DNA from: Escherichia coli
GTDB lineage: Bacteria > Pseudomonadota > Gammaproteobacteria > Enterobacterales > Enterobacteriaceae
Strand: one strand, 5' to 3'
Length of the DNA: 64,000 bases
NCBI RefSeq assembly: GCF_013122565.1
Contig: NZ_CP053258.1
Shown here one piece after another: positions 28,143-28,281 of this stretch. The notes beneath the pieces were generated by a model that ran no database searches, was not told the DNA's origin, and saw nothing but the letters and a program-made list of their open reading frames with translations. The stretch's first letter is position 1; the number at the start of each line of letters is the position of its first letter. The position numbers and the translations under genes are program-made.

Positions 28143-28281
28143 AAATCGCGGAAGGGATGAAAAAAACAGCGCCTGACGGCGCTGTGTCTGGCATGCCTGC
28201 AATCCGGGAAACCGGACCAGGAAAAAACTTGCAGGCCATAACAGTATCTACAGTTGGCATGCATCCAGCAATGTTGTGAGG

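Follow-up and report, generated by a model that had tools for sequence, protein, structure and literature searches.

The ends of an IS621 insertion in an Escherichia coli REP sequence very probably form the element's known junction promoter on excision

Circular forms of IS110-family elements have been reported (PMC11208160, PMC12288879, bioRxiv 10.64898/2026.03.19.712850), and a promoter that arises at the joined ends has been described for IS621 itself. Durrant et al. 2024 describe a sigma70 promoter of IS621 that is reconstituted where the right end (RE) meets the left end (LE), with the -35 box in the RE. In small RNA-seq of RE–LE plasmids, IS621 and five orthologues gave an LE peak of ~177 nt from the predicted endogenous sigma70-like promoter, and recombination was abolished with a donor shortened to 22 bp, which lacks the -35 box, unless bridge RNA was supplied in trans (PMC11208160). 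A second account has the RE give the -35 and the LE the -10, calls the promoter Pjunc and includes IS621 by name; it credits ISPpu10 with a strong Pjunc and ISPpu9 with none, and proposes that weak native promoters supply the expression for the first excision (PMC12288879). The same "activated only in the circle" logic is set out in a preprint in which the IS621 leader is expressed from Pjunc in reporters and the IS621 5′ stem-loop is a brake on downstream expression from Pjunc (bioRxiv 10.64898/2026.03.19.712850). The accessible part of the CazIS110-1 preprint, searched for promoter data, holds synthetic promoters only.

Here we analyse a copy of this element in the window, a 64,000-nucleotide stretch of E. 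coli DNA (contig NZ_CP053258.1, assembly GCF_013122565.1). The original prediction, made from the letters of the window, had proposed that a -35 at the right end of the element and a -10 at its left end become a sigma70 promoter only when the ends are joined. The observation is correct, as is its interpretation, and it is already known: the promoter has been published and experimentally tested for exactly IS621. The comparison draws on the following features.

26937–26968, plus strand: REP hairpin of the target, directly 5′ of the CT core (fold z -5.4), which includes CTGCCG at 26950–26955
26971–28249, plus strand: IS621 insertion sequence (IS110 family), 1279 bp, without terminal inverted repeats, CT core duplicated
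26973–26978, plus strand: TATTAT, the -10 half of the putative junction promoter, 2 bp from the LE terminus
26985–27161, plus strand: bridge RNA, 177 nt, with its 5′ end 7 nt after the -10 (fold -63.7 kcal/mol, z -3.6)
26985–27017, plus strand: 5′ stem-loop of the bridge RNA
27034–27042 and 27061–27064, plus strand: target-binding loop, with left guide ATCCGACCT and right guide GTAG
27107–27114 and 27146–27149, plus strand: donor-binding loop, with ACAGTATC and CAAG
27162–28142, plus strand: IS621 recombinase gene, 326 aa, the single long ORF of the element
28166–28185, minus strand: G+C-rich hairpin with an 8-bp stem and a TGAC loop, followed by T7 on the minus strand; intrinsic-terminator-like, facing inward from the right flank
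28196–28235, plus strand: inverted repeat CCTGCAA / TTGCAGG (7 bp), enclosing the hairpin TCCGG-GAAA-CCGGA (28203–28216)
28222–28227, plus strand: A6 tract (within ggAAAAAAc) directly 5′ of the -35, invariant in five copies
28229–28234, plus strand: TTGCAG, the -35 half of the putative junction promoter, in the right end, 15 bp from the RE terminus
28241–28249, plus strand: left donor ACAGTAT plus CT core, which with TG at 26971–26972 makes up the 11-nt programmable donor

The boundaries of the element do not depend on the promoter reading. A search of E. coli genomes with the flanks joined in silico recovered an uninterrupted cttatccgacCTacagttggc in strains without the insertion (also given as gtcttatccgacCTacagttggc), which fixes the ends of IS621 exactly at 26971 and 28249. 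A CT core stands on both sides in the sequence, in the flank at 26969–26970 and in the element at 28248–28249, and the empty-site alignment shows one CT. Supplementary Table 1 of Durrant et al. has the LE begin TGTATTATCCCTCCAGTGCAG and the RE end CTTGCAGGCCATAACAGTAT (PMC11208160). Whole-element matches, annotated "IS110-like element IS621 family transposase" and 99.8–96% identical, occur in 2244 of 5426 complete E. coli genomes. The window copy belongs to a rarer sub-lineage, for which the best match reaches at least 99% identity in only 12 of the 2252 matching records. Both its RE and the outer part of its LE (26971–27036, which takes in the terminus and the bridge RNA 5′ stem-loop) are identical to published IS621, and the LE departs from the published sequence only farther in, from the target-binding loop onward.

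The encoded protein has the architecture of an IS110 recombinase, a DEDD (RuvC-like) domain at the N terminus and a Tnp domain at the C terminus, represented in Pfam by PF01548 DEDD_Tnp_IS110 (residues 8–152, E 1.5e-24) and PF02371 Transposase_20 (residues 196–280, E 7.5e-26). It matches PDB 8wt6, "IS621 transposase", over residues 1–326 (E 1.2e-218) and is identical to the canonical genomic IS621 copy at 323 of 326 positions, a difference of three amino-acid changes.

The element is inserted in a REP sequence that has a tRNA operon on one side and ubiF (minus strand) on the other. The tRNA region, 26145–26880, holds seven tRNA genes (Rfam) and ends with a strong terminator at 26855–26880, to which a terminator scan assigns T-rich tails in both directions. 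An Rfam 15 search found no bridge RNA match in the LE; it returned the seven tRNAs and weak sub-threshold matches on the REP sequence and the terminator. IS621 inserts site-specifically into REP sequences at ATCnGnC-CT-AC, and the window flank reads ttATCCGACCT / IS / AC. Scanning metagenome contigs for the LE start yielded 68 insertion sites with 38 distinct left flanks, among which TTATCAGGCCT and TTATCCGACCT predominate. One REP allele, gacgCTGACGcgtcttatcaggcct, puts CTGACG (4/6 to TTGACA) 17 bp 5′ of TATTAT when the element is integrated (L009 and four other metagenome sites). The homologous locus of strain Z1323HEC0423 (L006), where two tRNA-Gln are annotated, is an empty site at the same position and carries the CTGACG allele. 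At two other loci, IS1397 (IS3 family) directly adjoins IS621 sequences (L004 1–248; L005 1643–2991). IS1397 is known to target REP/BIME sequences, and the adjacency suggests that the two elements compete for the same REP clusters or nest within them.

Outside its target loop, the bridge RNA of the window copy is identical to the published version, and it is LE-encoded and about 177 nt long, as in IS110/IS621. Published bridge RNA constructs start AGTGCAG, which is window position 26985, and end GGTTTCACT (PMC11208160). We took the guide positions from the N positions in the published screen oligos. The left target guide ATCCGACCT is identical to the left flank with the core added, and the donor guide ACAGTATC is a match to ACAGTAT at the RE end together with C, the first base of the core. 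The 11-nt programmable donor lies entirely within the promoter spacer. A donor-screen oligo template in Supplementary Table 2 of Durrant et al. randomises exactly those 11 positions, between ...GGCCATA and TATTATCCC, and their donor-library template randomises exactly ACAGTATCTTG (PMC11208160).

Both hexamers stand where they had been predicted, as confirmed by direct reading and by script: TTGCAG at 28229–28234 and TATTAT at 26973–26978. Joining the ends yields the 17-bp spacer that had been claimed, 15 bp from the RE (28235–28249) and TG from the LE (26971–26972). The arrangement is of the Pjunc type, with the -35 in one end, the -10 in the other, a spacing of 16–18 bp only after joining, and an orientation towards the guide RNA and transposase. 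The predicted start near 26985 coincides with the first base of the published bridge RNA constructs.

On paper the junction promoter is not strong, since its -35 matches TTGACA at only three of six positions (the TTG, the three most conserved); the whole site matches at 8/12. A standard promoter consensus scan of the linear region, with a threshold of at least 4/6 per hexamer, found no promoter-like site. Because that threshold would miss the junction promoter too, we used a weight-matrix scan instead. Consensus-base frequencies for the matrix followed Hawley and McClure and the remainder was split equally among the other bases, so the bit values are approximate. On this approximate sigma70 matrix the junction site scores 10.66 bits, and no other site on either strand of the circular element exceeds 7.95. 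When the ends were shuffled, 94 of 20000 trials gave a straddling site with at least the junction score, and so did 92 of 20000 random joins of window sequence. This chance expectation of ~0.5% argues that the junction site is real.

The consensus of the proximal UP subsite is AAAAAARNR. The A6 tract at 28222–28227 resembles it and may be UP-element-like; in the integrated state a G+C-rich REP stem occupies the equivalent position. An extended -10 (TGn) for the integrated state was also weighed and rejected, as TG at 26971–26972 abuts the hexamer directly and is not in the TGnTATAAT register.

Conservation was assessed within IS621 and across its family. The -10 TATTAT is invariant in five aligned IS621 copies (96–99.8% identity). 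The -35 TTGCAG is kept in four of the five, every copy whose recombinase gene is intact; L004, which is frameshifted, reads TTGCTG. For the family-wide test we used the 45 orthologue RE–LE junction 50-mers in Supplementary Data 1 of Durrant et al. (PMC11208160). In 37 of 45 junctions the top-scoring sigma70-like site spans the join, the spacer is 17 bp in 37 of 45, and the best -35 hexamer starts with TTG in 40 of 45. The -10 falls at the exact IS621 register in 19 of 45, and a score of at least 10 bits is reached by 19 of 45 junctions, compared with 5% of shuffles. As the orthologue spacers hold differing donor sequences, it is the promoter geometry that is conserved and not the recombination site. 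A contiguous RE–LE junction, whether from tandem copies or from assembled circles, was found in none of the 5426 assembled E. coli genomes, and the best matches in that search were two pieces at least 100 bp apart, which are neighbouring copies. The circle is transient, so missing junctions are to be expected in assemblies, and the search lends no independent confirmation.

Taken together, the site is very probably the Pjunc (hybrid junction) promoter of IS621. Its geometry, its boundaries, its identity to the published element, its chance level and its conservation are observed here; promoter activity, the RNA 5′ end and the requirement for the -35 come from the literature. As long as the element sits in the chromosome, the -35 (15 bp inside the RE) and the -10 (2 bp inside the LE) lie 1.25 kb apart and in the wrong order. 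Excision by the recombinase at the two CT cores would join the RE to the LE and create TTGCAG, 17 bp and TATTAT facing the left end. Transcription from ~26985 would then yield the bridge RNA of 177 nt, and transcripts that continue beyond the 5′ stem-loop would provide the recombinase mRNA. The same joint would rebuild the 11-bp donor within the spacer, so that the circle would serve as the substrate for integration and as the chief source of the machinery for it. Insertion into a REP target would split the promoter again, with REP stem sequence replacing the -35 and the upstream A-tract. The central proposal of the original prediction, a hybrid promoter present only in the excised circle and driving the left-end guide RNA and possibly the recombinase, agrees with the RNA-seq and the -35 removal of Durrant et al.

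How strict such a switch would be depends on the integrated state. It is possible, though on balance unlikely, that the switch is not strict, TATTAT being active in the integrated copy through the REP hexamer or through read-through from the tRNA operon, so that appreciable amounts of bridge RNA and recombinase would exist ahead of excision and circularisation would bring only a modest boost. The scores at this locus lend this some weight. The integrated-state hexamer CTGCCG (26950–26955) also matches the consensus at 3/6 and is only ~2 bits weaker than TTGCAG on the approximate matrix, and the integrated site ranks second of all sites, with 8.70 bits where the junction has 10.66. The claim that the integrated -35 is poor was therefore somewhat overstated for the window copy, but on sequence scores it holds generally. 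Among the 38 surveyed flanks the 17-bp-spaced integrated hexamer has a median score of -2.7 bits, 5.6 bits below the +2.85 of TTGCAG. IS621 inserts at a fixed REP register, so the integrated "-35" is a REP position and not random sequence. The commonest hexamer among the surveyed flanks is TGCGCT, the window CTGCCG (+0.9) falls in the upper quarter, and the REP allele CTGACG alone, found in 2 of 38 flanks and 5 of 68 sites, equals or exceeds the junction -35.

Expression from an integrated copy also has a logical claim, as the first excision needs some of it; this is the role that PMC12288879 proposes for weak native promoters. Moreover, the highly expressed seven-tRNA operon lies 90 bp upstream of IS621 and points the same way, so any transcription running past its terminator would reach the bridge RNA locus. 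Against this, the REP hairpin (z -5.4) and the strong tRNA-operon terminator stand between upstream transcription and the LE. The junction has an A6 tract 5′ of its -35, whereas the G+C-rich REP sequence has none, and removal of the -35 abolished function in the published assay (PMC11208160). In the accessible literature on IS621 we found no direct comparison of the junction with the integrated state, and the size of the on/off ratio at the window locus is a value that we infer.

A second alternative, that the hexamers are conserved for recombination through recognition of the donor and subterminal DNA by recombinase or bridge RNA, and that their promoter-like spacing is incidental, is very unlikely. 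The 11-nt donor does occupy most of the spacer, and the -35 does lie within the RE inverted repeat. However, both hexamers are outside the programmable donor positions, orthologues with entirely different donors keep TTGnnn, a 17-nt spacer and TAnnnT in register, and RNA-seq transcripts begin at the predicted position (PMC11208160). That two weak hexamers, matching the consensus at 8/12 and lying under the standard scan threshold, were juxtaposed by chance and have no function is scarcely credible, given the ~0.5% expectation, the geometry conserved family-wide and the published RNA-seq and -35 deletion that already contradict it (PMC11208160).

The junction-promoter reading can be extended, if only doubtfully, to a switch that would depend on the target allele and limit itself through donor occupancy. 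Judged by matrix scores, most REP alleles would give a dead integrated hexamer, CTGACG would give a promoter as good as that of the junction, and CTGCCG would be intermediate. Copies next to CTGACG or CTGCCG could be constitutively expressed "master" copies that provide bridge RNA and recombinase in trans for excising silent copies. Because the 11-bp donor lies wholly in the Pjunc spacer, a complex of bridge RNA and recombinase bound to the donor of the circle should occlude RNA polymerase, a form of negative feedback. In the accessible IS110-family literature we met neither the allele-dependent switch nor the donor-occupancy feedback as a statement.

The original prediction had further placed two hairpins in the right end and suggested that they may terminate recombinase transcription. 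The hairpins are present, at slightly different coordinates: 28166–28185 (not 28169–28186) and 28203–28216 (not 28208–28220). Their proposed role is not supported, as the T-run of the strong hairpin is on the minus strand and nothing backs a terminator role for the GAAA hairpin. On the plus strand, A7 precedes the 28166–28185 hairpin and the tail is GTCTGGCATG, without a T-run; the terminator call is on the minus strand only. With the T-run on the opposite strand, we rejected a recombinase-gene terminator as the primary reading of this hairpin.

Most likely, judging from its orientation, the 28166–28185 hairpin blocks transcripts that come in from the right flank and run antisense to the recombinase gene, which at this locus would be ubiF read-through. 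The terminator-like site (28160–28185) lies ~95 bp downstream of the stop codon of ubiF (28282–29463, minus strand), and it has probably acted as the terminator of ubiF since the insertion, protecting the recombinase gene from antisense read-in. As RNA, the RE folds at -43.3 kcal/mol (z -3.0). The -35 hexamer makes up most of the 3′ arm of the CCTGCAA / TTGCAGG repeat, which is a possible protein site or 3′-UTR structure.

Variation in the target loop was apparent among IS621 copies. The window copy and L001 carry the variant left guide ATCCGACCT (27034–27042) where the canonical guide is ATCGGGCCT, and in both CGCG (27057–27060) replaces TTGC just 5′ of the right guide GTAG. Compared with published IS621, the window copy's target-binding loop reads ATCCGACC and the published one ATCGGGCC, again with CGCG in place of TTGC beside the right guide (PMC11208160). 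In a comparison of L001–L004, variant copies are inserted at ttATCCGACCT/AC, an exact match to the variant guide, and canonical copies at ATCAGGCCT or ATCGGGCCT. This looks like natural reprogramming within IS621, with the target loop tracking the REP variant. The four-nucleotide change beside the right guide shows no match to the right flank ACAGTTGG. In two metagenome contigs (L022 and L028) the left guide, at LE ~64–71, is one base shorter, ATCGGCCT, and the targets are also one base shorter, ATCAGCCT, a pattern that we read as indel covariation of guide and target.

A truncated form of the element was also seen in E. coli. In about 560 records IS621 is represented by its first ~79 bases alone, which lie downstream of znuB and beside an IS1397 copy.

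L005 1501–1572; also L014, L047, L048, L056 and L058: solo left-end scar

The IS621 sequence in the scar breaks off precisely behind LE position 72, where the guide-coding ATCCGAC-CT has its CT, and is followed by ACGGTTC, the right half of a REP sequence. The guide-coding DNA ATCCGAC-CT-TG mimics a left junction (LT-core-RD), so the scar resembles the product of an aberrant excision that ran from this internal pseudo-junction to the right junction. The solo scar was seen at one locus only and thus probably goes back to one ancient event.

By coupling excision to the production of guide RNA and recombinase, the junction promoter belongs to the accepted life cycle of IS110-family "bridge recombinase" elements, and IS110-family bridge recombinases now serve as genome-editing tools. 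The promoter in the window adds no new biology; it is a validated regulatory design that proved recoverable from raw sequence. The additions made here are small and quantitative: the -35 is weak on paper, the "off" state would depend on the REP allele, and the strong RE hairpin points from the outside in.

Among known systems, the closest is the IS621 RE–LE promoter of Durrant et al., which belongs to the same element and is the same promoter, with the -35 in the RE, the -10 in the LE and the CT core between them; the promoter itself is without differences (PMC11208160). The Pjunc promoters of IS492, ISEc11 and ISPpu10 likewise combine an RE -35 with an LE -10, exist only in the minicircle and drive bridge or seek RNA plus transposase (PMC12288879, bioRxiv 10.64898/2026.03.19.712850). 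The TTGCAG of IS621 is weaker than the TTGACn of many IS110/IS1111 relatives. ISPpu9 is a documented exception that has no hybrid promoter (PMC12288879). The junction promoters of copy-out-paste-in elements of the IS911/IS3, IS30 and IS21 families follow the same logic, a transient strong promoter that forms on circularisation and is destroyed on integration (PMC12288879). Those elements rely on DDE transposases, and their abutted inverted repeats are separated by a few flanking bases. Unlike them, IS621 has a DEDD recombinase that joins the ends precisely at a 2-bp core, and its junction transcript is primarily a guide RNA.
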